Below, in pieces: positions 22,075 to 39,549 of a stretch of 64,000 nucleotides of DNA; the first letter of the stretch is position 1; every line of letters begins with the position of its first letter. The stretch is from a virus (Duplodnaviria > Caudoviricetes): positions 15,980-79,979 of the IMG/VR virus record IMGVR_UViG_3300035152_000033; one strand, 5' to 3'. The position numbers and the translations under genes were made by a program. The notes under the pieces were generated by a model that searched no databases, was not told the origin of the DNA, and saw only the letters and a program-made list of their open reading frames with translations.

Positions 22075-22111
22075 ATAAACGCCTCCAAAATTTAATTTAT
22101 CTTACATTCTT

Positions 22112-22140
22112 ATTCTATAATATTCCTTGACATATGTCAA
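22112..22140 (-). promoter_or_regulatory. Class I promoter with perfect palindrome
   Basis: CTTGACATATGTCAAG...TAGAAT, leader TAAGATAAATTAA. Confidence 0.88.
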
Positions 22141-24101: not shown

Positions 24102-24134
24102 ATTATACCTGAAAAGAATTAAAAAAGCCTGTTA
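24102..24134 (-). promoter_or_regulatory. Class II promoter
   Basis: TAACA-N22-TATAAT. Confidence 0.7.
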
Positions 24135-24859
24135 ATCTTTTATATTTAAATGTAATTTTTTTAATTCCTCCAATGACTTATCAGCATAGCTTTTATAATC
24201 ATATATAATGCTGATATATTGTTCACCTAAACTTGCAATTTGATCATTACAATAAGTAAGTTTAACTTGATTATCTTCTATTATTGATATACTAAAAAAT
24301 CATATCTTAACATTTCAATCCTCCAATAAATTTAAAGTATGTCTAACAGCTTCCTTATGGGTAAAAGGTTCTTTTCTTTCTTTTCGATCAGTGACAAAAC
24401 CCATAAACAAACTTTTAAATTTATTTATATCAGTCTTAAATAACCTTTTGCTTCCTCTATAATAAGACTTACCAACTTCTATAGCATAATCTACAGCGGA
24501 CCAGTTAACACCATCTTTAGACTTATACTTTAAAGGTTCCCCTCTGTCTCTTCTTTTCTTATTTCCTCTACTCATAATCATTCCTCCAATAAATATTATT
24601 TATTCATATATCCAACTTGCCAGGCATTAAGCCAAACCAATAAACAGTTATCAACTACAACCATCTTATCAATAGCAGAGGCAGCCACATAAATATCGCC
24701 CTGCAAAGCTGTTTTATTTTTCACCTTCTCAGAATAACAAATAACTAAACCCTTCCCATCTAAGATCACTTTATCATGAGAAGTATATGCCTTACTCTGA
24801 TTACCAAAATAACAAGTTATACTCTTAATATTAGTACTCTCCATAAAAATCTCCTTTCA

Positions 24860-24938
24860 CGCACTAAAGGGCATTCCTTTAGGGAATACCCTTAACGCTG
24901 TTTAATTAATTAATATTGCCAATTATCAATATGATTAT
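24860..24938 (-). ncRNA. Candidate sRNA, about 80 nt
   Basis: Consensus TTGACA-N17-TATAAT at 24945-24973, no RBS-led ORF, long 3' hairpin AAGGGTATTCC/GGAATGCCCTT. Confidence 0.5.
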
Positions 24939-25308
24939 ACACATATTATATAAACAGGTACTACACTTGTCAAGTCTCATCTACCCAATATGAACATATC
25001 ACATTAGCATCAGCTAACTTACCCAAAATTCTTTTATATTTAAACACACTAATCTGATGTTTAAAATACGTATCGTATAAACTCTGAGTATTATGAAACA
25101 TATAATTTTCTATTATCAGCATTTTAATAAAATAATACTTGAGATACACCCAGATAACAAACCCTAGACTCAGGGCCACAGAACAAAACCCAATAAGTAG
25201 AATTAATTTAACAATTTTAATCATCTCCTCACACCAAAAAAGATTATACCCCAGACAGTATAATCTTTAACAAATTTAGAAGGCTTTTTAGTTCTTCCCC
25301 TCATAACC

Positions 25309-25341
25309 ATTATACCTTAAAAACTGAAAGATAACAAGTTA
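25309..25341 (-). promoter_or_regulatory. Class II promoter followed about 40 nt later by a terminator hairpin
   Basis: TAACT-N22-TATAAT; hairpin AAAGATTATAC/GTATAATCTTT at about 25239-25268. Confidence 0.55.
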
Positions 25342-25355
25342 CAAAGAAATTATTC

Positions 25356-25745
25356 TCAGCTTCCTTGCTTATCTTTCTTTTGCCAGGGTTTAAACTCTTC
25401 TATCTTTTCAGCTAAAGTAAATCCATTACCATCGAAACAGATCGCCCTATCATCTATAGTCAAATAAGCCGCCTTCTTATGTGCTGATATTTCATCATAA
25501 TAAATATTATGCTCAGCACAATAATCCTTAATAGCTTGTATACCTTCCTTATGAGTACACCTTGATGAATAAATAACTATCTCAAACTTTCCACTATCTT
25601 TTAATTCATCTATACACTCTTTCATCCCTTTAACAACGGGATCAGGAGCCATATCAACTCCATGCCAGCCACTAGTATAAGAATGTATAACTCCATCAAA
25701 ATCAAACAACAATCTTAATTTATTCATTTCTTTTTTAGTCTCCAT
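25356..25745 (-). CDS. HAD-superfamily hydrolase
   Basis: LFDFDGVIH, IYSSR, IDDRAI. Confidence 0.8.
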   Translation of the reverse strand: METKKEMNKLRLLFDFDGVIHSYTSGWHGVDMAPDPVVKGMKECIDELKDSGKFEIVIYSSRCTHKEGIQAIKDYCAEHNIYYDEISAHKKAAYLTIDDRAICFDGNGFTLAEKIEEFKPWQKKDKQGS

Positions 25746-25784
25746 AAAGACCTCCTATAAAATAATATTCTTAGCTTCCTTAAA

Positions 25785-25901
25785 CAAAGAAATAGCAGGA
25801 TTTTTATCCCACTATTTCCCCCATTAACTACATTTACTACTCAAATATCGATATAATATTAAATAACATATTGTTAATATTTTAAGGTAACTAGCCTTAA
25901 T
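25785..25901 (-). ncRNA. Candidate sRNA under a class I promoter
   Basis: TTGACATATGT...TGG-TAATCT at 25908-25936, no ORF, 5' hairpin TTAAGG/CCTTAA and a terminator GAAATAGTGGG.../...CCTGCTATTTC-TTTGTTT. Confidence 0.5.
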
Positions 25902-27687
25902 AAAAAGAGATTACCACAGTTAATTACATATGTCAAGGATATTTCTATTTACTTTAGCCAAGCCTCCTGCAACCAAACATTTTGAAAAACACCATCTTTA
26001 AAACATACTGTCATCTCAAAACCTTCCTCACCTTTTACATTAGGAGTTCCAGCTCTTAAAATAACATGGCATTCCTCAGCAATACTTTTATCAATCACAT
26101 AACAAACTTCCCAACTCTCCAATAACTGAACAAATCTATCTTTATCCTTAATAGCAGTCATAAATTTCTCTGTGCTATCAAGCATAAACTTTTCTATATA
26201 CTCCCTATCAGTAGGATTAGGAAAACTACAATATTTAGTACAATAAGGAGCCATATTTTTAATATTTTCCTTATCCTTTTCACTTAATATGACCATAATA
26301 GGCTCCTCTTCACTATTATAAATCTTATTACCTATCTTAACTTTCATTTCTTAGCCTCCTCTATTTGTCAATTATATTATATTTTTTATGTTGTCTTGTC
26401 TCCTCTTAATGAAAAAATCCCAGGGATTAGTAAAAACCTAGTCAGCAAAACACTACATTATATACAAACCTCAACTTTTTTTAAATTTCCAGGAATACTT
26501 ACAGTAAACCCACACAATAGACAGTTAATATTAGTATACATAGATTTCTCATAAGGTACCTTAGAAGCCTCTACTTTAGAAGGTATGACCTCCTTTTTCT
26601 CTATAAAAAGCTTATGTCTAGTATTGCAATGAGGACATACAAAAGTCATATTACTATTAGACTCATCAATTCTAATTTCACCTGTTGTCAAAAATAATAA
26701 AAACTTACTTATAGAATAGCCAGTTACTTTCTCAAACTCTTCCACATCTCTTTTTAAACCTTCAACACTAAGCTCATCTATTAAGGCTTTTCTTTTACCC
26801 TCATCTTTTAAAGCCTCCTTAAAATCATTTAATAACTGTTCTTTTTCATTCATAAATATATCCTCCTATAATACACTCATTTTTTGCCTTTTAAACACCT
26901 TTTTATTTTACCCTATTAATATAACACCCTTTACCCTATTGATTAATTTAAACCATAATTTTGGGCTAAATTTCCCAATAACTACTGTGCTGCCTTAAAG
27001 CAAAATTAATGTTTCTTCATGGTATGTTCTTATAAAATAATTTAATAATCATGCCTTACATATAATTCTTTGCACTCAGGACAAAACTCCATTATTATGG
27101 AAACACCTATACTTTTCTTATACTCTTCCCCAAGCATACTAACCCTTAAGTCCTTATATTTATTAGCGTATAAAAGCACTTGACATTTAGGGCATTCTTT
27201 CAACCAACAACTCTTAGACCTATATACCTTGCCTCTCATAATAGCAGTAAACTTCCTCATACTACACACGCCCTTTCTATCTTAACGTTTAACTAAAGTA
27301 ACCATTTAATCCTCTTTAAGTATTTCCTATAGCACCATACTTTCAATTGCATACAGTTAATACAATAAATATATCCATCCCCTTTATTAATCTCATTACA
27401 CTTAGCTATTAACCAATAGACATATAACCTTATTCGTATATACTTAAAGCGTCTTTTTATTTTTCTCTTACAATTATTTATTCTCATGCTCAATAGTCTC
27501 AAAATATAAGTTATGTTCTTCCTGAAAAGATAACTTATTAAACAGCTCCTCAGTTACATATAACATAGAATCTCCTGCAGTGGTACCATTAACGTCCATC
27601 TTAACATATAATCTAAAGCTTGCAGGTAAAGCCTCTTTCTTATATATCCTAAATTTAATCTCTGACACAATAACACTCCTTTCTATC

Positions 27688-28281
27688 TTAGCATTTAAAT
27701 TCATCATCCAAGAGGGTCATGGCATAAGGAAAGCCCTCCCAGTTATCTACTCCTGCATCTTCTAAAGCAGTAAGTCTAGCCTCAGATTTTCTTAGCTCCT
27801 TAACTTCCTTTTCTAACCTCTCTATCCATTCCATATGAGTAAGTTTAGCATTCAATAACTCTTTATTATTAGCCCTTAATACCTTATTATCTGCTTTTGC
27901 TCTCTGATAACTTTCTATTAAACCCTCATCTAAAACAGTTAAGCCTTTAAGCTCTAATACTATCTGAATAAACATGGCATCCTTTAATTTTTGGAATACA
28001 TTTAACTCAGCAAAAGGAACCAAACAAGCATGTTCCTTTTTTTCTCGATCAGTGACAGGAGAATACTGCCAACCATCTTTTAATTTGGCCTCCATCCACA
28101 CATCATGGACCTCATAAGCAGTAATTTTAGGATTATCTAAAACCTCTTCCACAGCACATAGAACTTGATTCTTTCTTTCCTCAGACAAATTATCATAAGT
28201 CTCAATACAAGACTCACTATTACAAATACGTATAATCTGTAACAAATTAAAAGCTATCTTTGCTATATATTCTTTATCCAT
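27688..28281 (-). CDS. RyR-domain protein
   Basis: HDVWMEAKLKDGWQYSPVTDREKKEHACLVPFAEL...KLKD, followed by a coiled coil and LEDAGVDNWEG. Confidence 0.82.
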   Translation of the reverse strand: MDKEYIAKIAFNLLQIIRICNSESCIETYDNLSEERKNQVLCAVEEVLDNPKITAYEVHDVWMEAKLKDGWQYSPVTDREKKEHACLVPFAELNVFQKLKDAMFIQIVLELKGLTVLDEGLIESYQRAKADNKVLRANNKELLNAKLTHMEWIERLEKEVKELRKSEARLTALEDAGVDNWEGFPYAMTLLDDEFKC

Positions 28282-29288
28282 TAATAAAATTTCCCCTTAT
28301 ACTTTATATTTTGTGTAGCGGTAATAATACTATTATCCTTCCCATAATTAATCTGACCTATATTATTTTTATGTTTAACTACCTCTTTTCCATCTTCCAT
28401 AGTATCATTGATATTATCTATTATTTCATTTACTAAGATAATCTCAGATTTTAACTCTGTAATTTCCAGAGCCTTATTTACAGTCTTTAACATACTTATA
28501 ATTTCTCTCTTAAGTCCATCTCTCTTAGCCATTTTTAGCACTCCTTTTATTTAATTTTTCTATCACAAAGAGGACAATAATAACTTCCCTCTTTTAATAC
28601 CATACAACTATTATGGATATTTGCCCCACAATCACAGATTCCAAAGACAGTCTCATGCAATAGACCACTACAAGCATTACATATTAAAAATCCATCTTTA
28701 TCAAACATATCCACATTAAAAGCTCCTTTTTATCTTTATTCATTTAATCATCCCTTTCCATAACATCCCTTGTATAATCCTCAAACTCTGCCTCATCTGA
28801 AATATACGTCTGGCATACAGGACACCAACCGCTACCGTCATCAATAATAAAGTCACAATAAGGACACTCTTCACTAAAAAAATCCATGCTTAAACACCTC
28901 CTTAAAATATAAGATGAGGACAACTAAAAGCCGCCTCTACTTCAATTAATATAATAAAATCACCTGACTGTATACCAGGTAAAATCTCATTAATTTTTTT
29001 AACCGTAACCTCAGCGGCAATACTTACCATATCACTACAAGAAGTATTATAATAACCCTCTGAGTAATACTTACCGCTTCTTTTAAAGTAAGTTAGTTTT
29101 ACTCTATACATTTCCTTTTTCTCCCCTTTACAGCAAGGACAACACATATACTTGTGAATAGTCTCACAATAACAAGTCAAGTCCCCGCATTTTTCACAGC
29201 CACCAGAAAAACATCTGTTATCAGATAAAGAAATTTCCTTGGGAATGCTTAATATTTTAGAGCAATCAGCCATAAACACCTCCTTAAT

Positions 29289-29321
29289 ATTATACCTACC
29301 ATTAAACAAAAAAGCATGTAC
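29289..29321 (-). promoter_or_regulatory. Class II promoter
   Basis: GTACA-N22-TATAAT. Confidence 0.7.
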
Positions 29322-29350
29322 AATTTAAAAATTATACATGCCCTAATTCT

Positions 29351-29662
29351 TTAAATCAAACCTGACCAATTATTATAAGTTCTACCATTATCATTGGCAA
29401 ATAATATATAACAGTTTAACTCATTATCCCATATAAATTTAGAATTAAAGTAACCCTGCCCAGTCTTTAAAGTGCCAGTTATACATTTAAAGTCTGGTAT
29501 CTTTTTAGTTACCTTATATCTAGCCTCTAGATAATCCACCAGATCATAAACATCATCTAAAAAGATACCTCTAGATAAATTTTGAATCCTCTTATCATCA
29601 GCAAAAAACTTTCTCTCAACTCTATTCTTACACACCATTACTTTTAGTTCTTTCATTCCCAT
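29351..29662 (-). CDS. Early hypothetical protein
   Basis: ORF behind a class I promoter. Confidence 0.6.
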   Translation of the reverse strand: MGMKELKVMVCKNRVERKFFADDKRIQNLSRGIFLDDVYDLVDYLEARYKVTKKIPDFKCITGTLKTGQGYFNSKFIWDNELNCYILFANDNGRTYNNWSGLI

Positions 29663-29692
29663 TCCCTCCTAAAAATTTTATCTTATGATTTA

Positions 29693-29721
29693 ATTATACA
29701 CCTATCCTTGACATATGTCAA
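29693..29721 (-). promoter_or_regulatory. Class I promoter with perfect palindrome
   Basis: CTTGACATATGTCAAG...TATAAT; the -35 overlaps the upstream TGA stop. Confidence 0.9.
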
Positions 29722-30536
29722 GCATTAAGGTTATATTTCTCCACCAATTCTAAAAGCCTGGTATCTAACTTAGCCTTATTTTTTTCCCCACTATAAATAA
29801 CTAAATAATAGTTTGTTTCATCTACACTATTACTAGTGTTATAGCTATCCCAATAATGCTCTTTTATAAGAACAGCATAAGTATTACTTAATGTAAAATT
29901 AGGCTTGCATTCTTCTTCCTCAGGAGTTTCAGTGTCTCCATTATTTGAGTACTCATAATAATATTCAAATCCACAATGAAGATCATCACCATATAATATA
30001 GTATCCTCCTGTAATTTCCCTTCTTCTCCTGCCCATGAATGCTTTCTCGTATAATCAATAAGAGTCATTCTTTTAGCAAATTCCTTATAATCAGTTGTGA
30101 ATTCTACTTCTACATCCATAATAGACAAATCTATATTATCCACTATAGAATGTATAAAATTTTCATCTTCTATCTTAGAGGCTCTGATAATTTTCTCTGT
30201 CAATCTGGCTTTCTTTTCTGTCTCCGTTAAAGCCAGATAATTATTATATTCCTCTTCTTTCTCAGACACATAATCTCTCCATCTATGAGAGACATAGATA
30301 TAGTCTTTATCCACAGAATCAATATAATATCTGTGAACTTCATCCTCAGATATATAAACATTTCTACCTCTGACAAGAGGCATGACAAACTCAGGCTTAT
30401 AAATCTTGATAAACTCAGATTTATGATCTCTAAATGTATCAGAGACAAACTCCAATACATTTTCAAAAATAGCATTTACTTCTATAACATCAAGACCAGT
30501 TAACTGGCCTATAATTTCTTTTTGTAAAATCTTCAT
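29718..30536 (-). CDS. Acidic early hypothetical protein
   Basis: 272-aa ORF with RBS GGAGGAG. Confidence 0.7.
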   Translation of the reverse strand: MKILQKEIIGQLTGLDVIEVNAIFENVLEFVSDTFRDHKSEFIKIYKPEFVMPLVRGRNVYISEDEVHRYYIDSVDKDYIYVSHRWRDYVSEKEEEYNNYLALTETEKKARLTEKIIRASKIEDENFIHSIVDNIDLSIMDVEVEFTTDYKEFAKRMTLIDYTRKHSWAGEEGKLQEDTILYGDDLHCGFEYYYEYSNNGDTETPEEEECKPNFTLSNTYAVLIKEHYWDSYNTSNSVDETNYYLVIYSGEKNKAKLDTRLLELVEKYNLNA

Positions 30537-30565
30537 AATATTCTTCTCCTCCTATAAAATTTAAT

Positions 30566-31117
30566 TTAAAAGCACTCCACTACAAAATGTAAATGGTTTT
30601 CCTCATAAAAGGCCCATATATTACATATAGATTCTTTAGAATACACCAACATATAAGCACCATACCCACCCTCTATAGGACGAGACAAGTAAATTCGTTC
30701 TGTATGTGTCTGTTGAAAAATTTCATATAATTCTTGATGGATAACATAAATTTTACTATGTTCGGGTTTCGTAGATGGAATTTTACTAGTTTGCAAATCT
30801 TTCAGCAAATCCTTTAATTGATAAAGGGTCGAAAATGTTCCACCTAAAACCTTACTATTTCTTTTGGCCTCTTCTCTCTGCATTTCAAAAGACACTCTAT
30901 TATTATTAAAATAAATCACATCTGCCTCAGTAATATGCAACTCTCTAGCTATATCCTCAACCTGTTTACCTCTGGCTTTATAAATTCTAGCTAGAGAAGC
31001 CTTAGAAGCTTTAAATTTAATTAATTCTTTAATCATAGCCATTTCAGCTCTATTATGAAGACCTTCCAATCTTCCTAACTCTTCTAACTCATCTAACAAA
31101 TCTTTATAATTTTTCAT
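30566..31117 (-). CDS. Early protein with HTH-like segment
   Basis: RGKQVEDIARELHITEADV; behind a class I promoter. Confidence 0.6.
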   Translation of the reverse strand: MKNYKDLLDELEELGRLEGLHNRAEMAMIKELIKFKASKASLARIYKARGKQVEDIARELHITEADVIYFNNNRVSFEMQREEAKRNSKVLGGTFSTLYQLKDLLKDLQTSKIPSTKPEHSKIYVIHQELYEIFQQTHTERIYLSRPIEGGYGAYMLVYSKESICNIWAFYEENHLHFVVECF

Positions 31118-31154
31118 ATAAATCTCTCCTTTAAAATTTTTATCTTATGATTAT

Positions 31155-31183
31155 ATATTAGCATTTTCCTTTACATATGTCAA
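31155..31183 (-). promoter_or_regulatory. Class I promoter
   Basis: TTGACATATGTAAAG...TGC-TAATAT, leader ATAAGATAAAAATTTTAAAGGAGA. Confidence 0.88.
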
Positions 31184-31634
31184 GCTTTTATTTAAAAAAA
31201 TAAGAGGGTATATTTAATACCCTCTCAGCTTCCTTAATACTATTTTACCCAATTTACTACATGAATAATTAAGTTATATTCATACTCACCTAAAGGCTCT
31301 TTTAACTTAAGTTTTTGATAACTTATAATATTTGCCATAGGTACCGTTAAATTATCTATAGTTATTCCTGTAGAATTAATAATACACTCCGCTCCTTCAC
31401 CTATAAAAGGCTTACCTTCATGGTATAATGCTACCTGAGCTTTAAATTTATCAAACATTTAATCATCCTTTCTATTATAAAACATATTCCTCATAAAAAT
31501 CCTCAATGGAATAAGTCTCCCAGGAATCCCCATTATTAACCTCAACACAATCCCCATGACAAACAAAATTACCAGGGTCCACCTTACAAAAAGTCTCTAC
31601 CATATCCAACATACTACTCATAATATTCCTCCTA

Positions 31635-32252
31635 TTAATTATGTTCTGCTTTTAATATACCGATTCTCACCGCTTCATCCACAGGCAATATATCAGCCAA
31701 TAAGGCTATATTCTCTTGAATTTTATCTCTTTTAGCTAAAACAGAAGTATCTGCTTTTTGCCAATCCTCCCATTTAGAAACACCACAAGCAAACTTTATT
31801 TGTTTAGCTACTTCCGCTATATATTTACCAAAAGCTTTCTTATTACTAAACTTAGCATACAAGGCACCCGACATTTTAGTATAACTATCTCCACTTTCAT
31901 TCCTATATCTTAGCAAATAATCATATAACCAAGAATAAGTTTCAATTTTTAACTTAGGGCTTATAGCCAAAGCCAAATCTATAAATAAATAAGGATGGAC
32001 CCAAGTATGTTTACCTCTACCTCTACCAGCTATTTTTACTTTACATTTAAACTTATTCTCTAACTCTGCCATAAAATCTATGGTACCTTTTTGCCTAAAC
32101 CACTCAGATAAACTAAAAGGAGCCAATCCATTATACAACCGCCATTGATTACCTGCCTTTGTCAAATCAGTCGCAGACAAAAACTCACTTTTAGATTTTT
32201 GAGCTATTTCCATGTTAAATAATTTACGTTTCATAATAACCTCTGTTTTCAT
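31635..32252 (-). CDS. KilA-N domain DNA-binding protein
   Basis: FLSATDL...LSEWFRQKGTIDFMAEL...GRGKHTWVHPYLFIDLA..ISP. Confidence 0.85.
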   Translation of the reverse strand: MKTEVIMKRKLFNMEIAQKSKSEFLSATDLTKAGNQWRLYNGLAPFSLSEWFRQKGTIDFMAELENKFKCKVKIAGRGRGKHTWVHPYLFIDLALAISPKLKIETYSWLYDYLLRYRNESGDSYTKMSGALYAKFSNKKAFGKYIAEVAKQIKFACGVSKWEDWQKADTSVLAKRDKIQENIALLADILPVDEAVRIGILKAEHN

Positions 32253-32380
32253 AAAAACCTCCTATAAAATATGTGTTTTCAGAGATATTATAATACAACT
32301 TTTATAAAAGTTAAATAGTTTTTCCCTAAATAATACAACTTTTTTTAAAGCCTTAAATCCCATATTTATTAAACTCCTCC

Positions 32381-32490
32381 AAATAAAATAAGCTTCATTT
32401 ATTATCCTAGTGTGCAGCTCGAACAATAAATAAAGCTTTTATTTTATTAAAGACTAAAAACTGGCTGCACTTCATTTTTTAATCTTCAAT
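32381..32490 (-). ncRNA. Two-hairpin RNA with complementary loops (kissing loop 1)
   Basis: Promoter TTGACT-N17-TAGTAT at 32497-32525; loops GTGCAGC and GCTGCAC; stems contain five G-U pairs on this strand. Confidence 0.65.
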
Positions 32491-33214
32491 AATGAAATAC
32501 TAACACAAACCAATCTACAAGTCAACCTCTTAATCTTTTTCCTTCATCAACTCATTTGCACATTCAGCACAAACATTTAAAACCTGACCCGTTTTTTTAT
32601 GCGTCATTTCAATTAAAAAATAATGTACAGTCTTACCGCATTTCTCACATTTAGCAGTAAACACAGGCCTCATTATACCACTCCTTTCTACCATTTTTCA
32701 TGCTTACCATCAATCATCCAGCCATACTTACAACGATTGCAGTAACACTTTTTAACCTTTACGGTACCACCCTTAACATATTGAGTCGTTTCATCTACCT
32801 TATCAGACTTGCCACACTGCGGACATACTTCTTTAACAACCATATCAATCCCTCCTCATACTATATATTAGGAGCATTAGTCCTAAGGACATAACATTCA
32901 GGAGCAGGCTCCCAGGCAAAAAACATATTATCGGCATTAATTAACCTATCAATAAATACCTGATAATAGCCTAAATGTAAACAAACATTATAGCCACCAG
33001 CTTTGACCGCACTATCCATAGTATCAGCCAATAGGTCATATTTTTCTAATAAATCTTTTTTAGGTCCAGTTAACTTAAAGTCAAAAGGAGCAAAAGATAC
33101 CCAAACTACCTTTGATTCCTCAGCAACATTACACATTACTTTTGCTGGCTTAATAGAAATCAAAGATTTACTTCTATCTAATAATGTAAATCTCATCTCA
33201 TTCCTCCTTAGAAT

Positions 33215-33337
33215 AAATAAAGCCTCTTATTTTATGTTCAAAGTCAGAGTAACATAAAACAAAAGACTATTTTTTCATCATGTATTATTATATTTAAGGT
33301 TTTAAACTTGACTCTGACAACAACTTTAAAACCTTAA
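33215..33337 (-). ncRNA. Two-hairpin RNA with complementary loops (kissing loop 2)
   Basis: 13-bp and 18-bp stems with loops containing GTCAGAGT and ACTCTGAC. Confidence 0.6.
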
Positions 33338-33349
33338 CTACTTTAAATA

Positions 33350-33472
33350 AAATAAGCCTTCTCCTTGCCTATAGTTGTGATAGGACACGCATTTGTCGAA
33401 GCAGAAAACTTACAGGCCGCAGGTGATTTCACACAAGCTAGATTACTAAAATCTCTTCGATAACTTCATCCT
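33350..33472 (-). ncRNA. Candidate structured ncRNA (multi-stem, GC-enriched)
   Basis: Promoter TTGACA-N18-TATATT at 33479-33508; pairings AGGAT/GTCCT, TCGAAG/CTTCGA, AGATT/AATCT, CCTAT/ATAGG; no ORF. Confidence 0.5.
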
Positions 33473-33514
33473 GAAAACAATATATCACAAAATGGCACGC
33501 CATGTCAAGCATAA

Positions 33515-33638
33515 ATTAAAAACATCCTAGAATTTTCTAGGATGTTAAAACCTGCAACACATTATAAATTATAAGAAAAAGTAAAACTAATATTTATCAC
33601 TTATTATCCAGCACATAATAAATGAACCCATTCGACTT
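33515..33638 (-). ncRNA. Candidate sRNA, about 125 nt
   Basis: TTGCAT-N17-TATACT at 33645-33673; internal hairpin TCATTTATTAT/ATAATAAGTGA; terminator AACATCCTAGA/TCTAGGATGTT. Confidence 0.5.
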
Positions 33639-33655
33639 AAAAAAAGTATAACACA

Positions 33656-34003
33656 TTAAATCATACCATGCAACTGACAACGAATTTTAATATCACAAGG
33701 ATTAGCCCCAATATTTTTAGCTACTAATCTAAAAGAATAACCTTGCGGGCCTCCGTTACGATAAGTGGTATATTGACCAAAGGCCGCACTCATAGGAACA
33801 TTAAAAGGCATATTAGGCACATCCTCAACAAGTTCCGAATCTCTTCTTTGAAAATCCACTTCTATATCCTCAGTATTAGTGATCATCATTAGAACATCTC
33901 TAACGAATTGAATATCATTAAACCAACCAGATTTAACAACACCGCCAACATTAAGCCCAGCTACATCAATAACCAGACCCTTATCAATATAATTTGTATC
34001 CAT
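33656..34003 (-). CDS. Hypothetical beta-rich protein
   Basis: Likely start MDTNY after RBS GGAGG. Confidence 0.55.
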   Translation of the reverse strand: MDTNYIDKGLVIDVAGLNVGGVVKSGWFNDIQFVRDVLMMITNTEDIEVDFQRRDSELVEDVPNMPFNVPMSAAFGQYTTYRNGGPQGYSFRLVAKNIGANPCDIKIRCQLHGMI

Positions 34004-34060
34004 AAAATACCTCCAAAATATTAGTATATTTTCATAATAGCATAATATTTTTACTAACAC

Positions 34061-34158
34061 AAAAAATAGAAGCTAAAAGCTTCTATTGTATTTATGGTGT
34101 AATCCTCTATATAAATCCGTAAACTTATTTATAGGAAGGAATGACTAAAAGTATTTAT
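34061..34158 (-). ncRNA. Candidate sRNA, about 95 nt
   Basis: TTGACT-N17-TATAAT at 34165-34193, no ORF, terminator AATAGAAGC/GCTTCTATT-TTTT. Confidence 0.5.
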
Positions 34159-34189
34159 AAACACATTATACTTTAGTCATTCCCCAAAG

Positions 34190-34603
34190 TCAAACTTTCT
34201 TCTCAATAATGATTTTAACTTTATAGGACTCATCCGATACCAGATCACAACTAAATAAATCTTTTAATTTATTTAAAGCCTGGCCATCCACCCCAGGATA
34301 TTCCCTATAATTCTCTATCTCATAAAGCACATCATTTAAAACATCCAACTCCGCATAAGATAGAATAGTTTCCTCAGGCTCCAAAGAACCATCAAGCCAA
34401 AAATATCCCTTTACTTCAATATAAGTTTGGTCTTTTAAATTTACTAACTTCATTAATATGGCTTTTAAATGAGTCATATTCATAACATCAGGCCCCACTT
34501 TAGAGCTTACTATAGTATTACATTGCATATAAGTAGCCATAAGCCCAGACTTAGACCTGATATAATATTCCACACTATAATTATACATCTTTTCCATTCT
34601 CAT
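34190..34603 (-). CDS. Hypothetical protein, paralog of the adjacent gene
   Basis: Shares SKVGPD...L.A.L..L.NLK..TYI.V with 34600-34854. Confidence 0.6.
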   Translation of the reverse strand: MRMEKMYNYSVEYYIRSKSGLMATYMQCNTIVSSKVGPDVMNMTHLKAILMKLVNLKDQTYIEVKGYFWLDGSLEPEETILSYAELDVLNDVLYEIENYREYPGVDGQALNKLKDLFSCDLVSDESYKVKIIIEKKV

Positions 34604-34854
34604 TCCTCCACTAAAAATACTTTTTGAACCACAATATAAGTACCCTCTTTTAAATTTAATAAGCTTTCTAAAACAGCCTCAAGATAACTAAAAGACACCT
34701 CATCAGGCCCAACTTTAGATTGGATTGTATCTGCAGATAAAACTTTAGTATTTATAAAATCTGACTCTATAGTATATTTAACCACATAATCATAAAATTT
34801 ATCCACTTTCATTCCTCCCATAAACCTATTTTTTATCTGTCTTAACCACTCCAA
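34600..34854 (-). CDS. Hypothetical protein, paralog of the adjacent gene
   Basis: See 34190-34603. Confidence 0.55.
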   Translation of the reverse strand: MEWLRQIKNRFMGGMKVDKFYDYVVKYTIESDFINTKVLSADTIQSKVGPDEVSFSYLEAVLESLLNLKEGTYIVVQKVFLVEE

Positions 34855-36805
34855 TTATATAATCTCTCAGCATATACACAGAGCCTTTAATCATTGTATT
34901 ATTGCCAAAAGACACTAGCCATACAGCAAAAGCAATTAACCAACCTACTTTAAAACCTAAAATAATTAAACCCACAAGCCAAAAAATAAAACCTATATAA
35001 TTATACTTATTATATTTCATTTCTGATCCTTCCTTTTCTTGGAGCAATCTCCGCAAACAATAAAACTAAACTCTATATCCTTATTACAATCTTGGCACTT
35101 ATGACCTACTATTTCCACTCTAGGCTCCTCAGGCTTACCAGTGAAAATCCTTTGCCCTATAAAAGGCTTATAATGCACTTGCCTGGTATCCAATTGCCAT
35201 GCCGTATGAAGCATATTAGGCATGGTACCTTCCTCATGACAAAACCTACACGATATACAAAAAGGAACTACACCGTCTCTAGAGTTCCAAAGAATTTCCA
35301 TAGCTCCGCAAGCCTTACACCTATATAACATAAGGCAATAAGCCTCATTATATATAAATTTTTGTGTCATCCTTCTACCTCCACGATTAACTGATAATCA
35401 TCTAAAGACTTATCAGGCTTTATATTTAATACTCTTTCAAGAGTTCTAAGAACCCATCTTAATTCTCCGTAGATAGCTAAATTAGCCTCTAATTTGGCCT
35501 CATCAAATTGAATTAAATCATATCTATTTTTAGAAGCTTTAAAAGCAATCTGGTCTTTTGCCACATGATAAGCACTTAAGAAATCATCCCTACACTTATA
35601 ATACAAAGTAACCAGGTCCTCTGTCTCCTTAGAGGATAGCACATAATTTCTATTCTTGCATTCTTCTCTTTTTTCCTGAAAATTAATAGCCATTAATAAC
35701 CTCCTATAACACCTTTTTACTACACTCATCACATAAAAATAAATCAAATTTCCTTCTATAACTTATAATAGAGTTACCACACCCATTACTACACATAACC
35801 TTGCATTTTTGTTTACACTTAGTTATACAATAAGTACTTTCATTGTTTTCATATAATGGCAATATGCCTTTTATTTTTAATTTATGCTTGCAATCAATCA
35901 TTAATAACCTCCTTAACCCATAATCATCTTTTTACCCGTAGGACCACATTTAGGGCAATAATTAAACCAGCATCTAAAATCATCAGAGTATATATTCCAC
36001 CAATGATAATCTTTACTGGCTTTAACTGCCTCTTTATGGGTCTTACGCTTTATAAGCAGCCCACAAAGATCACACCTTAACTCATAAAAATTATTAGTAC
36101 TCTTTAAACTCATAACTTGATTCCTTTAAGCACACCCCTATAGGACTATTAGCCTCAGTAGCTAAATGACCATCCTTAAACTTAACTTTTAATTCACCGC
36201 TACCATCAAATTTAGTTATCCAGGCTATACCATTAGCCCCTTGACTCATAGAATTTAAACGAGTAATTTTGCCCTCAATAGTCTTTTCTCCATTACTGAT
36301 TAAAACAATCTGCCCCATAAGAGGATGCTCAGCCAATAAATCATCCACAGGACTATCCAGAAAACTTATAGTATCAGCAGGCACTAGGACCACCTGACCG
36401 ATCATTAATTCTACTATAGCCATAGGGTAAACTCCTTCCATATCAGAAGAACCAGCAGGACAAAAGCCATGAAACCATCCGACCACATCATAGGTATATT
36501 GATTATTAATATACACCTTTTCCACTAAAACCTTTCTAGGTTTCTTACCATCTTTAGTCATCCTTAAACCTCCCAGGTAATTTAATATCATGTATACCAT
36601 TAATTAATCTTAAGGCATACTCTAAGATTTCATCATCAGAAGCATTTACACCATTAAATATCTTTTTAACTTTTTTCAGCTCATACAATGTTTTAACAGA
36701 CACAGACAATAACACCTTTTTATCATTCTTATCATTCATAATAATTATTCCTCCTATACTACACACCCTACACTATAAATAAAATCACTTGTGCTCCTAA
36801 CAGGT

Positions 36806-36838
36806 ATTATACCGCCGAAGGAGCAAAGTTTAATGTTA
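36806..36838 (-). promoter_or_regulatory. Class II promoter
   Basis: TAACA-N22-TATAAT; near-duplicate of 55203-55235. Confidence 0.7.
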
Positions 36839-36864
36839 TTTTAAAAAATTTTTAAACTTTTTTT

Positions 36865-37176
36865 CTAACCTATACTAAGGAAATTATTATAAGCTATCAA
36901 ATCAGCTCTAATCGCTTTTAAAGCCTTTAAGTTAGCTTTAAATTTATCCACCATATCAGATAAAGTGCCTTCATCCAATAAGGCTAATTCATGCAGATTA
37001 ATCCATGAATGATACATAAATAGATCAGCATATTTATATTTAGTTTTTAAAGAATCATAAAAACGATTCTTATTTAATCTATTGCCTCTGAGTCTACTAA
37101 TAGCATTCTCAGTATTGAGACAATTTTTAGCTAACAATGATAATTCCATACTAAGCTCTAAATGTAATTTATTCAT
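36865..37176 (-). CDS. Early hypothetical protein
   Basis: 103-aa ORF behind a class I promoter. Confidence 0.65.
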   Translation of the reverse strand: MNKLHLELSMELSLLAKNCLNTENAISRLRGNRLNKNRFYDSLKTKYKYADLFMYHSWINLHELALLDEGTLSDMVDKFKANLKALKAIRADLIAYNNFLSIG

Positions 37177-37215
37177 TTAATCATCCTCCAAAAATTAATT
37201 TTATCTTATGTATCT

Positions 37216-37244
37216 ATATTAACATTATCCTTTACATATGTCAA
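37216..37244 (-). promoter_or_regulatory. Class I promoter
   Basis: TTGACATATGTAAAG...TGT-TAATAT, leader ATAAGATAAAATTAATTT. Confidence 0.88.
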
Positions 37245-37261
37245 GGATAAATATAAAAAAA

Positions 37262-37285
37262 TAGATAGGGCATAAACCCTATCTA
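37262..37285 (-). terminator. Intrinsic terminator ending the recombination operon
   Basis: TAGATAGGG/CCCTATCTA followed by a T-tract. Confidence 0.75.
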
Positions 37286-37286
37286 C

Positions 37287-37511
37287 TTATACTCTATGAT
37301 TCCAAATCTTAACCGCAGTATCCAAATCCAAGTAAGAAAAAGTATTAACAGCCATTACCTTTTCAATTTTACAATACTCACAACTCACAGAATAATGATA
37401 TATTTTTTCAATTCTATTAACTAACCACCTATCTACGCCCTTAGGTATGGTACCACAAAAAGGGCAACTCTTAATAGGTATCTTAGACTCTATTAACTCA
37501 TAATCCATCAT
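37287..37511 (-). CDS. Lar-like restriction alleviation zinc protein
   Basis: KSCPFCG...VSCEYC...AVKIWNHR. Confidence 0.65.
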   Translation of the reverse strand: MMDYELIESKIPIKSCPFCGTIPKGVDRWLVNRIEKIYHYSVSCEYCKIEKVMAVNTFSYLDLDTAVKIWNHRV

Positions 37512-38173
37512 TTCACCTTTTCAATTACAGTCTTATATTTAGGTTTACTGAACCTATAAACCCGATCAGCATAATCAATAAACTCTTTTTGATGAGTTAC
37601 AAGAATTATCTGCAGGTCCTTTCCTAACTCAGTAACCAATTTATTAATCACCTTAGCAATTAAAGGCACGTACTCAGCCGATAAATTAGCAAAGCTTTCA
37701 TCTAAAAATAAAACAGGTCTATATTTTTTAGACTGAAATACCAGGACTAATAATTTCAATAAGAACCCTACTATATTACTTACACCACCACCATTAGAAG
37801 ACATAACATCTGTGGTAACTTCTTTATCTTCATACATAAAAGTCAATACAGGTTTAATAGTAAATTGATTTCTTTCTATACTGTTAATAAATTTAAAACT
37901 TTTGAACTGTCCTTCAAAAATAATTGATAAAGCATAAGATATCAACATTTCAAATTTATCTTGTATATTTCTATGTTCTCTTTCACTGAATTTCTGGAAT
38001 AATCTAGCCACCTCTTCCAATATACTAGAATCAAATTTAAGCTCTTCCACAACTTTATCCAGATCAGCAATCCTACTATTTAAATCTTTTAATAATACCT
38101 CTTCTCTATTGACCGAAAATTCAAAATCATCAATAGCATTTGATAAAATACCTAATTTATTCATCATTCCCAT
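37508..38173 (-). CDS. Rad50/SbcC ATPase, C-terminal half
   Basis: Short coiled coil, signature-like SNGGG, Walker B VLFLDESF, H-loop ILVTHQ; no Walker A. Confidence 0.85.
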   Translation of the reverse strand: MGMMNKLGILSNAIDDFEFSVNREEVLLKDLNSRIADLDKVVEELKFDSSILEEVARLFQKFSEREHRNIQDKFEMLISYALSIIFEGQFKSFKFINSIERNQFTIKPVLTFMYEDKEVTTDVMSSNGGGVSNIVGFLLKLLVLVFQSKKYRPVLFLDESFANLSAEYVPLIAKVINKLVTELGKDLQIILVTHQKEFIDYADRVYRFSKPKYKTVIEKVK

Positions 38174-38182
38174 TATAACCTC

Positions 38183-39283
38183 CTAATCAAAATCAATTTG
38201 TAATTGATTTATAATAGCTAAATTATTATCATGCTCAAATAATAAAGCAGCTTTTCTAGTTTTCTTATCATCCCCTAATAAAATCTCTAAACTAGGATTA
38301 TCTATACAAGAAATAGCCCCTAATATATGCTCATGATTAACTCCTATAGTTCGATCAGGATGAGACCACGACACATCTATTACCTCAGTAGCCATATTAC
38401 CGTATCTATCCTTAGCCCTCAGAATTAAACTATTCTTTTTTAAAGCCACTAAAATTCCTTTTGTATTTTCATCCGCAGTAATCCGCACTCTCCTAATACC
38501 CGCTCGCAAAGCTGCCTTATCTACAGTTAATTTATATTTATTCTTCCTTGCGGGTTCAACTAATAAGGCTTCGACATCAGGATAATCCACATTATTCTTA
38601 GTTATTAAAAAGCAATCAATACCTGAAAATACTAATATATGGTCCTCAGTCTCCCCAATACCGATATTTTCTGTCTCAGTATTTTTAAGCATTTTTATTA
38701 AATCTTCTACAGCTCCAACAGGAAACTGCAAAGATATATCCTTCAAAGCTTCTAATTTAACCTGTCTAAATATAGCTCCATCAGAAGCCATCACCGACCC
38801 TTTAACTACATTAATCATCTGCAAAGCAGGTCTAACAGATTCCTTAGCAGCAGCCCCTTTTACTTTTAATAAAGCAGTTATTAAGGCTAATCTAGGCACA
38901 TCTATTTTAGTACAAGATTCAATCTTAGGAATCTCAGGATAATCATCAGGATTCATTAAATGTATAGACCACTCAGCTCCAGCACACTTAATTAAGGCTT
39001 TATCATCAGCCACAGAGATTAAAACTACATCATCCTCACAACCATTAATAATCTCTTTTAATGTTTTACCAGGAAATATAGCCTTGCCTGAGGACTCTAT
39101 TTCAATTAAATCACTGGAAGCCCTAATAGAAAGTTCTAAATCAGTAGCTATTATTTCAATGTCTTTATCTACTTTTATATGAAAGTTTTTAAGTATTGGC
39201 ATAAAATCGCCTTTTGACAATAATACTGCAGAGGCCTTATTTAATAAAGCCTCTAATACAAATTTTTTAATCCTAAATTTCAT
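38183..39283 (-). CDS. dnaN: DNA polymerase III beta sliding clamp
   Basis: 366 aa; PILKNF, IIATDLEL, DYPEIP, RPALQ, ASDG, DYPDV. Confidence 0.92.
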   Translation of the reverse strand: MKFRIKKFVLEALLNKASAVLLSKGDFMPILKNFHIKVDKDIEIIATDLELSIRASSDLIEIESSGKAIFPGKTLKEIINGCEDDVVLISVADDKALIKCAGAEWSIHLMNPDDYPEIPKIESCTKIDVPRLALITALLKVKGAAAKESVRPALQMINVVKGSVMASDGAIFRQVKLEALKDISLQFPVGAVEDLIKMLKNTETENIGIGETEDHILVFSGIDCFLITKNNVDYPDVEALLVEPARKNKYKLTVDKAALRAGIRRVRITADENTKGILVALKKNSLILRAKDRYGNMATEVIDVSWSHPDRTIGVNHEHILGAISCIDNPSLEILLGDDKKTRKAALLFEHDNNLAIINQLQIDFD

Positions 39284-39549
39284 AGTAATCCTCCTGCTTT
39301 TAATTTAGCCTCTATATCATTTAATTCTTTTTCTATCTCTGCCTCTAAAATTTCTTTTTTATTAACCAGATCATCATAATCCTTAATTCCAAATTTCTCT
39401 TTAGCACCAGCTAACAACTCATTATAAGAATTACTATTAATTTCTAATTCTCTCTCAGCTACAGCCAATTTTCTCTTGCCATCTTCTACAGCAGTTTTAC
39501 ATTCATTATATCTTTTAGTTAAATCTTTCATATCTAAACAACTCCTCAT
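39280..39549 (-). CDS. Small coiled-coil protein
   Basis: 89 aa with a heptad pattern, located within the SbcCD operon. Confidence 0.6.
   Translation of the reverse strand: MRSCLDMKDLTKRYNECKTAVEDGKRKLAVAERELEINSNSYNELLAGAKEKFGIKDYDDLVNKKEILEAEIEKELNDIEAKLKAGGLL

Follow-up and report, generated by a model that had tools for sequence, protein, structure and literature searches.

Paired hairpins with complementary loops in phage leaders: a probable RNA control module

Two adjacent hairpins on the minus strand of this phage DNA carry loops that are exact reverse complements of one another. Do they form an RNA control element, and if so, what would such an element control? The locus (element 1) lies in a window of 64,000 nt, the whole stretch of DNA that was analysed, and a preliminary description had proposed for it a loop-loop pseudoknot acting as a termination switch. 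Its parts are collected in Table 1, together with those of a second copy of different sequence (element 2), which lies 800 nt upstream in the same phage (G000) and has the loop pair GUCAGAGU/ACUCUGAC. The structural description of element 1 is borne out by refolding. The hairpin with the GTGCAGC loop has 16 pairs in both the minimum free energy (MFE) and the centroid structure, the adjacent stem, described as longer than 20 bp, consists of 17 pairs and a further 7 A:U pairs, its GCTGCAC loop is the exact complement, and the U-rich run and the ribosome binding site (RBS) that were said to follow hairpin 2 are both in place.

Table 1. Features of elements 1 and 2, in window coordinates
Feature	Position	Strand	Basis or remark
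-35-like hexamer TTGACT, element 1	32525-32520	minus	sequence and consensus scan
Extended -10 TGtTAGTAT, element 1	32505-32497	minus	TAGTAT at 32502-32497; TG precedes the hexamer (consensus scan)
Hairpin 1	32491-32445	minus	16-bp A/U-rich stem, 15-nt loop; MFE and centroid structures
L = GUGCAGC, hairpin 1 loop	32470-32464	minus	sequence
Hairpin 2	32444-32381	minus	17 bp, 3-nt bulge, 7 A:U pairs, large loop; terminator-like (fold)
L' = GCUGCAC, hairpin 2 loop	32418-32412	minus	exact reverse complement of L
U-rich run UAUUUUAUUU	32390-32381	minus	after the GC base of hairpin 2; sequence
RBS GGAGGAG; ATG of a non-conserved 33-codon frame	32380-32374; 32363-32361	minus	sequence, ORF list
Promoter-like site TTGACA-18-TATATT, element 2 leader	33508-33479	minus	11/12 matches, with TG; would drive the leader
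Element 2 hairpin A	33341-33290	minus	19 pairs, two 1x1 mismatches; loop has GUCAGAGU at 33318-33311
Element 2 hairpin B	33276-33211	minus	~19-bp core; loop opens with ACUCUGAC (33250-33243); tail UUAUUUAUU (33220-33211)
RBS AAGGAGG and ATG after element 2	33209-33194	minus	start of 111-aa ORF 32861-33196

The promoter that had been placed at 32525-32497 is likewise present as a promoter-like site, with a 17-nt spacer ending in TGT and 9 of 12 consensus matches, and hairpin 1 begins at about its predicted +1. Around element 1, however, nine such sites were found against 8.4 expected. Since this AT-rich region shows no excess of promoter-like sites, the promoter of element 1 is plausible rather than established, and it is treated here as a candidate only.

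In its MFE structure, element 1 contains five G-U pairs and is more stable on the sense strand (-34.3 kcal/mol) than on the antisense strand (-18.3 kcal/mol), and the same preference holds in seven of seven folded sequences, which have 3-7 G-U pairs each and gain 8-20 kcal/mol on the sense strand. The preliminary description had taken such pairs as support for an RNA function. While the pairs and the stability difference stand, the minus strand is G-rich (plus-strand GC skew of about -0.4), and a genome-wide search that permitted G-U pairs returned 506 minus-strand hairpins as against 80 plus-strand ones, so that the G-U argument alone is weaker than had been assumed. The case rests on recurrence and covariation rather than on G-U pairs by themselves.

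The folds and the loop matches were compared with several random expectations. The folding energy of element 1 corresponds to z = -4.71, with none of 200 dinucleotide shuffles equally stable, and that of element 2 to z = -3.47, with one of 200 shuffles as good. The loop-loop duplexes have computed energies of -11.2 kcal/mol (L/L', element 1) and -10.9 kcal/mol (element 2). The window contains a single instance of the motif GTGCAGC-N(20-50)-GCTGCAC, and none of 100 shuffles contains any. When the loops of element 1 were shuffled, a 7-nt complement arose in 1226 of 200000 trials, and the six elements tested by loop shuffling gave p values between 0.0009 and 0.009 per element; random swapping of loop partners produced a complement of at least 7 in 57 of 20000 trials. 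Among 378 hairpin-plus-terminator pairs taken from phage DNA totalling 1.21 Mb, 8 loci showed GC-rich loop complements of at least 6, as against 2 loci in each of the two controls (reversed loop and same-sense loop). A relaxed scan that omitted the GC filter gave no overall excess above controls.

The design is found repeatedly. Nine sequence-distinct elements were identified, two in G000 and seven in other uncultured phage contigs, and every one of them has a private pair of complementary, GC-rich loop segments of 6-8 nt. At the position of element 1, G001 carries UCCGACC/GGUCGGA, so that G000 and G001 hold different alleles of the element at one locus. The remaining pairs are UCGCUCC/GGAGCGA (L018), UAUCACC/GGUGAUA (L008), GGACGAG/CUCGUCC (L019), CGACCAGA/UCUGGUCG (L222), UACCGAC/GUCGGUA (G004) and ACGCAC/GUGCGU, which is common to G006 and L225. 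Across the elements the loops measure 7-19 nt and have no common motif. Two details of element 1 do not extend to all of its counterparts. Hairpin 1 starts a few nucleotides from the predicted +1 in element 1, G001, L019 and L222, but the nearest promoter-like site lies ~140 nt upstream of element 2 and ~50 nt upstream of the L008 element, and a start at +1 is therefore not general. Similarly, matched stem lengths are not universal, because hairpin 1 has just 9-10 bp in the G006/L225 and G004 elements.

The comparison of L019 with L222 also speaks for pairing between the loops. These are orthologous leaders, with a common -10 box (ATGGTATAAT) and a common tail plus RBS (GGTTTTTTATTGGAGTTTA), and in the kissing helix two G:C pairs of one are C:G in the other, both changes being compensated. 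Several further compensated changes can be read by comparison in the stems of hairpin 1. Loop 2 is already two columns out of register in the alignment of this pair, and the nine elements together are too dissimilar for the aligner. Loop complementarity among homologues, which the preliminary description had left to be checked, is thus retained in the distinct elements and restored where L019 and L222 differ. Because the design recurs with unrelated sequences in other phages, the double hairpin is probably a real, so far unnamed RNA control module, and at the level of sequence, the loop-loop pairing is supported by nine private complements and by two compensatory swaps in one orthologous pair.

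Such elements are rare. In bacterial prophage regions near Bro-N genes (80 loci, 1.14 Mb) none was found, the best match being one palindromic 6-mer, TGATCA. A strict scan of ten whole related contigs added none, returning only the known G007 and G012 elements and one AT-only match, and a metagenome scan with the conserved left-junction 21-mer returned only the contig of G001 itself. The upstream regions of 23 KilA-N homologue loci were also folded; none has an element directly upstream, so that the element is not tied to the KilA-N gene. The cultured Vibrio phage with the closest KilA-N (OX241574.1) gave weak matches only and no terminator-linked element. Several other candidates were set aside: the other minus-strand GCUGCAC (54294-54288) lies inside a small zinc-ribbon ORF and was taken as chance, and the weak double hairpins at 56584-56507 and 63614-63501, as well as those of G001 at 79903-79779, 56966-56843, 42149-42037 and 87038-86918, have AT-rich or very short loop matches and were judged unrelated.

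In 9 of the 10 copies read by eye, hairpin 2 has a G/C-containing base followed by a U-rich run, the G004 copy being weak. The tails after this base read GGGUUUUUUAUU, CGGUUUUUUAUU, GGUCUCUUUUUAUUUUU, AGGGCUUUUUUAAU, AGGGCUUUUUUAUUUU, AGGGCUUUUUAC, GGGGCUUUGUAUAUUU, GAAGCUUAUUUUAUUU and GAGGCUUUAUUUAUU. Hairpin 2 is not listed by a simple terminator scan, since that scan accepts loops of 3-8 nt only and the loop of hairpin 2 is longer than 8 nt. In the phage G000, 11 of 12 minus-strand terminator-like sites have loops of 3-5 nt; the loops of hairpin 2, at 12-19 nt, thus stand out, and hairpin 2 resembles, in its sequence, an intrinsic terminator with an unusually large loop. Some features of element 1 count against this reading, namely that its U-run is interrupted and able in the fold to pair with an upstream A-run, and that the element has few G-C pairs. 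The start codon follows the tail by 18-26 nt in the five elements counted, in which there is no space for another promoter between hairpin 2 and the start codon. In L018 the distance is ~55 nt, and a TATAAT box may lie between terminator and gene, which counts against an attenuator. Among the sequencing runs matched to the stretch, no RNA run is listed; the matching DNA runs come from wetland and sediment habitats.

The genomes that carry the element offer few points of reference. The G000 genome measures 80-89 kb and encodes a large terminase, and the element has a mid-genome position upstream of ordinary genes, in a region built as a string of small cassettes, each with its own promoter-like and terminator-like site. 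There is no studied relative, since no cultured match to the DNA polymerase exceeds 32% identity. BLAST of 31600-33200 against cultured phages gave no match, the neighbouring 111-aa and 366-aa proteins have relatives in G001 only, the protein encoded downstream of the L018 element matches nothing but itself, and a tRNA/tmRNA scan found none. Of the nine downstream genes, three specify antirepressor-type domains (KilA-N, Bro-N and ORF6N/ANT), and the others a replisome organiser or unknown proteins; in L008, L225 and G006 the element heads the replication module. The tyrosine integrase family PF00589 is absent from five of five element-bearing records, four of which are at least 90% complete, making a role in lysogenic immunity unlikely. 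The element-bearing phages are AT-rich and apparently virulent. The Rfam search suggested in the preliminary description returned noise only, with no family matching either 31000-34000 of the window (E<=10) or the four loci L008, L018, L019 and L025 (E<=1). Rfam 15 includes a model of the guanidine-IV riboswitch.

Genomes exchange the element as a cassette whose limits are the -35 box and the RBS. Variants were compared in metagenomic DNA contigs of four runs (X2, X3, X4 and X9). The X2 and X3 contigs diverge exactly at 32520, in the -35 box, which is the left mosaic breakpoint, and G001 is likewise identical up to the -35 hexamer TTGACT and different beyond it. The X9 contig breaks at 32382, at the end of the U-run. 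The X4 contig is identical over 32371-32554 and then enters a different gene, placing the right mosaic breakpoint at the RBS (32371); it has 0 differences in 32371-32554, as against 30 substitutions and 3 indels in 32555-33099.

In the reading that we tentatively favour, and to which we give not quite an even chance, the element acts as a leader attenuator or a small-RNA unit, the efficiency of its terminator being set by loop-loop pairing. The leader would be modular, running from promoter through hairpin 1, a short linker and hairpin 2 to the RBS and gene, and the large apical loop of hairpin 2 would expose 6-8 nt for pairing with the hairpin 1 loop. Hairpin 1 would fold first, and once the apex of hairpin 2 had been transcribed, the GC-rich loop segments could join in a kissing helix or pseudoknot that contributes -8 to -12 kcal/mol. 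Such a link would tie the top of the terminator hairpin to hairpin 1 by way of the short linker, and would thereby set how far the bottom of the terminator stem can form. As a result, transcripts would divide in a fixed ratio between a terminated RNA of ~105 nt and an mRNA that reads through into the gene behind the RBS. Whereas the structure, its recurrence, the covariation in the loop-loop helix and the exchange as a module are shown, we infer transcription from the promoter, termination at the U-run and an effect of the kissing helix upon it. Of the termination switch originally proposed, the pseudoknot gains from the private complements and the compensatory swaps, and the U-rich run in nine of ten copies, together with the guanidine-IV precedent (PMC7736828), suggests the link with termination. 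Switching itself fares less well: a Watson-Crick helix of 7-8 bp should form without ligand, which counts against it, and nothing was identified in the elements that would turn the kissing helix into a switch. Of the other readings offered in the preliminary description, the nuclease-resistant small RNA is kept as a rival, while no support emerged for a decoy of a host defence protein.

Alternatively, the main product might be the ~105-nt terminated RNA, an abundant, self-addressed small RNA. Its two free loops would pair, in trans, with those same loops on nascent or read-through leaders of its allele, or with more copies of itself, head-to-tail. It would feed back on termination or translation, the private loops serving as specificity codes. 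Promoter, 5' hairpin and terminator are the standard anatomy of a bacterial small-RNA gene, the loop pair differs in every element, including the two within one genome, alleles are swapped as cassettes at one locus, and the G:C to C:G swaps between L019 and L222 have no wobble intermediate. Judging from helix geometry, the linkers of 0-7 nt in several elements would bar a fully stacked, intramolecular end-to-end kissing complex. There is also precedent (PMC4825925), in that the read-through transcript of IsrK is a target in trans of its own short form and the P4 CI RNA brings about termination by pairing with complementary sequences in its leader, and the antirepressor-type domains in three of the nine downstream genes agree with it. 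However, the effective concentration in cis favours intramolecular pairing wherever geometry permits. An intramolecular H-type pseudoknot fits five elements, which have 1-2 nt before L and 0 after it, and 0 nt before L' and at least 4 after it. With the lack of a tyrosine integrase also weighing against it, we regard this small RNA as unlikely. More doubtful are 'address-coded' kissing terminators, a class of phage RNA module that would be new, in which hairpin and terminator would recognise each other via a freely reprogrammable loop code of 7-8 nt and the terminated dumbbell RNA would find only nascent leaders of its own allele or polymerise head-to-tail. Were this true, each cassette would possess a private, RNA-only read-through feedback, orthogonal to the other cassettes in the cell and to co-infecting relatives.

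It is also improbable that the element serves RNA stability or processing, with the hairpins shielding the 5' end of the mRNA or acting as RNase III-type sites that separate the cassettes, and with the strong Shine-Dalgarno (SD) sequence downstream as a stabiliser, as one reportedly is in early RNA of Bacillus phage SP82. The position of hairpin 1 a few nucleotides from the predicted +1 in element 1, G001, L019 and L222 would suit this role, as would stems of 15-24 bp, long enough for RNase III-type enzymes, a strong GGAGG directly after hairpin 2, and the string of small cassettes, each with promoter and terminator. Yet it leaves the conserved loop complementarity and the U-run unexplained, element 2 and the L008 element are not 5'-terminal, and hairpin 1 is merely 9-10 bp long in two elements.

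The put RNAs of phage HK022 remain bound to the transcribing RNA polymerase and let it resist downstream terminators. A double hairpin that likewise stays on the polymerase is suggested by two adjacent hairpins just downstream of a promoter and by the many terminators between the cassettes of the phage, but it is very improbable here, as hairpin 2 is itself terminator-like and the elements have no common sequence that could form a polymerase-binding surface. Least probable of all is a DNA-level feature (a protein site, origin or recombination structure) or a chance match of AT-rich hairpins: although the element sits at recombination breakpoints, heads the replication module in three phages and has inverted repeats that are symmetrical in DNA, its sense strand folds better in seven of seven cases with 3-7 G-U pairs, the elements hold no common sequence for one protein to recognise, and the loop shuffles, the partner-swap null and the controls exclude chance.

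Full-text literature searches found no description of a phage hairpin-terminator kissing module. The phi29 packaging RNA (pRNA) also has two mutually complementary loops, whose complementarity is kept across related phages despite differing sequences and whose intermolecular pairing yields a ring; it uses a 4-nt loop pairing and a three-way junction, and lies at the genome end of small podoviruses that are not known to have a terminase. The present element, unlike the pRNA, is mid-genome in a phage with a large terminase, and its fold is two simple hairpins. P4 CI and IsrK of Gifsy-1 are leader-derived phage regulatory RNAs with a related arrangement (PMC4825925): the leader of the phage contains mutually complementary stretches, a short RNA and a read-through mRNA both arise at a terminator close to the promoter, and the genes are of regulatory or antirepressor type; these RNAs pair with linear target sites, some of them at the RBS, and act in lysogens of enterobacterial phages. 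In the element described here, by contrast, each partner is a hairpin loop that lies upstream of the RBS, and the search for a tyrosine integrase was negative. Of the features of P4 CI/P1 c4-type immunity RNAs, covarying complementary leader segments are present (the L019/L222 swaps and the G000/G001 alleles), and a temperate life style is not indicated, PF00589 being absent from all five records.

Riboswitches provide further parallels. The guanidine-II (mini-ykkC) class has short stems and conserved ACGR tetraloops, depends on a ligand and controls translation; the phage elements, with their loops of 7-19 nt, show none of these features. The likeness lies in two tandem hairpins of a 5' leader with kissing loops (PMC9300104). 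In corrinoid (cobalamin) riboswitches, the L5-L13 kissing loop controls the expression platform: an upstream loop contacts an expression-platform hairpin loop and decides whether the terminator forms (PMC10327014). That loop forms 3-5 pairs, gains stability from the ligand and is part of a large aptamer, and its partner P13 adjoins the terminator; the phage element has no aptamer, and the partner is the terminator-like hairpin itself.

The closest known design is that of the guanidine-IV riboswitch (mepA or GGAM-1 motif), in which an upstream hairpin is followed by a Rho-independent terminator hairpin and the two make a pseudoknot or kissing contact. [quoted passage not shown] In the riboswitch, the ligand pocket is built from highly conserved loop nucleotides (PMC7736828), whereas the nine phage loop pairs have no common sequence. 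The riboswitch sits upstream of sugE/mepA-type genes, whereas the phage elements precede regulatory or replication genes or unknowns. The phage loops pair through 6-8 canonical base pairs that need no ligand, their stems have roughly twice the length, and the regions scanned match no Rfam model. If the favoured reading is true, phages use a compact, protein-free and ligand-free logic of kissing hairpin and terminator so far known only from riboswitches, with a recognition code that can be rewritten at will and a unit that moves as a cassette from -35 box to RBS. The elements would then be a new structured-RNA class for phage annotation, a natural test case of tertiary contacts that tune intrinsic termination, and a source of ready-made orthogonal parts for synthetic transcription control.

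The double hairpin on the minus strand is laid out as the preliminary description had it: a promoter-like site adjoins hairpin 1, the GTGCAGC and GCTGCAC segments of the two loops are exact reverse complements, and hairpin 2 is followed by a U-rich run, a ribosome-binding site (RBS) and a start codon, the promoter-like site being read with the result that a promoter scan in the AT-rich DNA of this region of G000, the virus record in hand, gave no enrichment over shuffles. At the spacing of this element, termed element 1, the two heptamers occur once in the window and in none of 100 shuffles. The double hairpin is both the minimum-free-energy (MFE) and the centroid structure (-34.3 kcal/mol, z = -4.71), and none of 200 shuffles was equally stable. 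The five stem irregularities, which had been described as G-U pairs on the minus strand, appear as five such pairs in the fold, and the antisense strand reaches only -18.3 kcal/mol, a comparison to be weighed with the genome-wide excess of G-U-tolerant hairpins on the minus strand (506 versus 80 on the plus strand), which arises because the minus strand is G-rich.

Coordinates of the two double-hairpin elements and of terminator-promoter pairs in the accessory region
Feature	Position	Strand	Basis
Element 1, -35-like TTGACT	32525-32520	minus	sequence
Element 1, spacer, 17 nt, TGT at its end	between TTGACT and TAGTAT	minus	sequence
Element 1, -10-like TAGTAT	32502-32497	minus	sequence
Element 1, hairpin 1 (16 pairs, 15-nt loop)	32491-32445	minus	MFE and centroid fold
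GUGCAGC in hairpin 1 loop	32470-32464	minus	
Element 1, hairpin 2 (17 pairs, 3-nt bulge, 7 A:U pairs)	32444-32381	minus	MFE and centroid fold
GCUGCAC in hairpin 2 loop	32418-32412	minus	
GGAGGAG after U-rich tail of hairpin 2	32380-32374	minus	
ATG behind GGAGGAG	32363	minus	
Element 2, hairpin A	33341-33290	minus	
Element 2, hairpin B	33276-33211	minus	
Terminator to promoter, example 1, accessory region	33546-33521 to 33508-33479		
Terminator to promoter, example 2, accessory region	37288-37259 to 37244-37216		
Terminator to promoter, example 3, accessory region	31227-31201 to 31183-31155		

A second double hairpin, element 2, lies approximately 800 nt upstream on the same strand and is unrelated in sequence. 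Its loops, GUCAGAGU and ACUCUGAC, form an exact 8-nt complement, and hairpin B is followed by UUAUUUAUU, AAGGAGG and the ATG of a 111-aa ORF. A scan of G000 for adjacent hairpins with at least 14 pairs in both stems returned three places, namely elements 1 and 2 and a third with an AT-only 6-mer match. Between element 2 and the promoter-like site at 33508-33479 is an ORF-free, G+C-richer stretch of about 110 nt (33365-33478, minus strand), nearly identical in the related record G001, with a few substitutions in metagenome runs X4 and X9 and without an Rfam match; it may be an additional structured part of the leader.

G000 (79,979 bp, the window being its bases 15980-79979; estimated completeness 90%) encodes a DNA polymerase, a DnaB-type helicase, a ligase, a UvsX-like recombinase, a clamp loader and a large terminase. 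The G+C content of the window is about 31%, the strands are strongly skewed, and 65 of 66 ORFs of at least 100 aa are on the minus strand. There is no close cultured relative, as identity of the polymerase to those of cultured phages is at most 32%, and the element 1 region has no nucleotide match among cultured phages. Since a tyrosine integrase is absent from five of five element-bearing records examined, these phages are probably virulent. Both elements lie in a series of small genes (21500-39500) with several near-consensus minus-strand promoters. This accessory region is built of terminator-promoter-gene cassettes in series, and its terminator-like sites number 17 against 4.8 expected.

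Hairpin 2 itself looks like a terminator. In nine of ten copies read, a G/C-containing stem base is immediately followed by a U-rich run, the weak exception being the tail AACAUAUUUUCU of phage contig G004. The stem ends 18-26 nt before the start codon in five elements, which therefore have no room for a separate promoter; in locus L018 some 55 nt separate the two, with a possible TATAAT box between them. A consensus terminator scan did not list hairpin 2 because it takes loops of 3-8 nt only. Among the 12 minus-strand terminator-like sites of the accessory region, 11 have loops of 3-5 nt, and the large loop is exactly what distinguishes hairpin 2 from the ordinary terminators of the phage.

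Element 2 recurs with hardly any change in the only close IMG/VR relative, G001 (88,665 bp, with terminal repeats). Where G000 has element 1, G001 has the same zinc-ribbon gene and TTGACT and then a different double hairpin (element 1'), whose loops, AAUCCGACC and UGAGGUCGGACUUGGU, give the pair UCCGACC/GGUCGGA, followed by the same GGAGGAGUUU and by a Bro-N gene instead of KilA-N. Six further elements were found in other phage contigs: L018, L008 (= G007), L019 (= G012), L222, G006 (= L225) and G004. Across the elements, predicted loop-helix duplex energies are -7.7 to -12.3 kcal/mol, and in all seven sequences folded both ways the sense strand, with 3-7 G-U pairs, is 8-20 kcal/mol more stable than the antisense. 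G006 (26400-26320, minus strand) and L225 (about 2335-2395) have a third hairpin immediately before the short hairpin 1; it is longer, with an outer stem of 12-13 bp and a loop that is large and itself structured. Loci L058 and L060 share another adjacent hairpin pair (5400-5302, antisense to the fetched gene; 12 + 12 pairs); its loops have AAATGTT as an AT-rich 7-nt complement, and terminator features are absent.

The complementarity exceeds what shuffling produces. For each of the six elements tested, shuffling both loops gave the observed complement length in 174 to 1727 of 200,000 trials; the individual p-values of L008, L018, L019, L222, G006 and G004 are not independent tests, since complementarity led to the discovery of these elements. 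In 590 kb of phage loci, strict scanning gave 94 adjacent hairpin pairs with complements mostly of 2-4 nt, L008, L019 and L018 being the sense-strand outliers, and random exchange of loop partners yielded a complement of at least 7 in 57 of 20,000 trials. Without a GC filter, a relaxed scan showed no excess, being swamped by AT-rich matches.

Two comparisons are free of this discovery bias. Firstly, scanning 1.21 Mb of phage DNA with terminators as anchors (378 hairpin-plus-terminator pairs) found GC-rich complements of at least 6 at eight loci, versus two each in the reversed-loop and same-sense-loop controls; 1.14 Mb of bacterial loci (257 pairs) gave one, with one and three in the controls. 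Secondly, L019 and L222 are orthologous leaders that have the -10 box ATGGTATAAT, the linker, and the terminator base, tail and RBS (GGTTTTTTATTGGAGTTTA) in common. The kissing helix is GGACGAG:CUCGUCC in L019 and CGACCAG(A):(U)CUGGUCG in L222: at positions 1 and 5, G:C has become C:G through changes in both loops, and L222 gains one A:U pair; these pairs were counted by eye because the aligner places loop 2 two columns out of register. Several hairpin 1 stem positions also differ, with pairing complete in both. G000 and G001, with different, internally complementary alleles at one locus, give a coarser version of the same message. The double hairpin of the preliminary description is real, and it is a member of a small recurrent family supported by covariation.

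In every element, one partner is found in a small loop of 7-10 nt or directly adjoins its stem, and the other is in a large apical region of 12-19 nt. In element 2, L018, L008 and G006/L225, the hairpin 1 segment is preceded by 1-2 nt and separated from the 3' arm by 0 nt; G004 is less strict, with 4 and 2 nt. In all five, its complement follows the 5' arm of hairpin 2 with 0 nt between, and 4-19 nt come after it. Four of these elements have a mini-hairpin in this last spacer (CCGG-GCAA-CCGG, ACUC-GAAA-GGGU, CACUC-UAGC-GAGUG and CAUCCACC-UUU-GGUGGGUG). By the geometry rules of pseudoknots, we infer that such spacer lengths suit an H-type pseudoknot, in which hairpin 1 would have the loop helix stacked on it, while hairpin 2 would exit at the junction and run back beside hairpin 1. 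Element 1, element 1', L019 and L222, having spacers on both sides or fully pairing 7-nt loops, resemble classical kissing loops. The two hairpins have stems of similar length in seven elements (15-19 versus 17-20 pairs) and of unequal length in G006/L225 and G004 (hairpin 1 of 9-10 pairs); linkers are 0-12 nt, except for about 20 nt in element 2.

Variants of 32200-33600 were compared in contigs from four metagenome runs. X2 and X3 agree with the window as far as 32520, where the -35 box ends, and then diverge; X4 shows no differences over 32371-32554, 30 substitutions and 3 indels over 32555-33099, and a different gene directly behind GGAGGAGUUU; X9 breaks off at 32382, the end of the U-run, where it has 7,690 other bases. 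Since the variants break at 32520, the RBS and the U-run end, the double hairpin is, as judged from these contigs, a unit of exchange between -35 box and RBS, independent of the downstream gene. The 13-mer GCTTATTTTATTT occurs on the minus strand at 32393-32381 (3' end of hairpin 2) and 33357-33345 (just upstream of hairpin A), with a close variant, GCTTTATTTATT, at the end of element 2; these may be short common junction sequences for cassette exchange.

Genes downstream across the family encode KilA-N (behind a 33-codon frame), Bro-N, ORF6N then ORF6N+ANT, replisome organisers (twice) and unknowns. Within the 33-codon frame (32262-32363, minus strand), a promoter-like TTAACT-16-TATAAT (32314-32287) would serve the KilA-N gene; the frame is probably not a conserved gene, since other genes replace it in G001 and X4. 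The KilA-N protein (31635-32252, minus strand) has as best PHROG match 6095, labelled 'amidase', an annotation its homologues carry in many Vibrio phage records (57% identity) and which looks like a propagated error. Between the elements, overlapping ORFs of 54 and 51 aa (32530-32694 and 32688-32843, minus strand) have CxxC...CxxC zinc-ribbon patterns, and their Pfam and PHROG matches are all weak and below threshold; mini zinc-ribbon ORFs of this kind also lie at 54190-54470, upstream of the polymerase gene.

Together, the elements are predicted to be modules of leader RNAs, built so that the loop of one hairpin pairs with the apex of another that resembles a terminator. The most likely reading, tentatively held, is a putative cis-acting attenuator or small-RNA unit whose loop-loop helix would set termination efficiency. 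A small RNA acting in trans on its own address is unlikely, and an element serving stability or processing somewhat more so. An antiterminator that binds polymerase is very improbable, and a DNA-level feature or chance the least credible of all.

No Rfam family matched the double hairpins, and full-text searches of the literature turned up no account of a kissing hairpin-terminator module in phages. Further comparisons were drawn with phi29 pRNA, HK022 put RNA and SP82 RNase III sites. Among published designs, the guanidine-IV riboswitch comes closest; it differs in being defined by highly conserved loop nucleotides and gene context, neither of which was found in the phage elements. According to its authors, the ligand-bound structure contains the terminator stem, and they propose that kissing hairpins stretch the linker such that the outer terminator pairs fail, giving antitermination (PMC7736828). 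In corrinoid riboswitches, an L5-L13 kissing loop steers the expression platform (PMC10327014). IsrK and the P4 CI RNA show that a phage RNA terminated close to its promoter can act on the read-through transcript or nascent leader of its own unit (PMC4825925).
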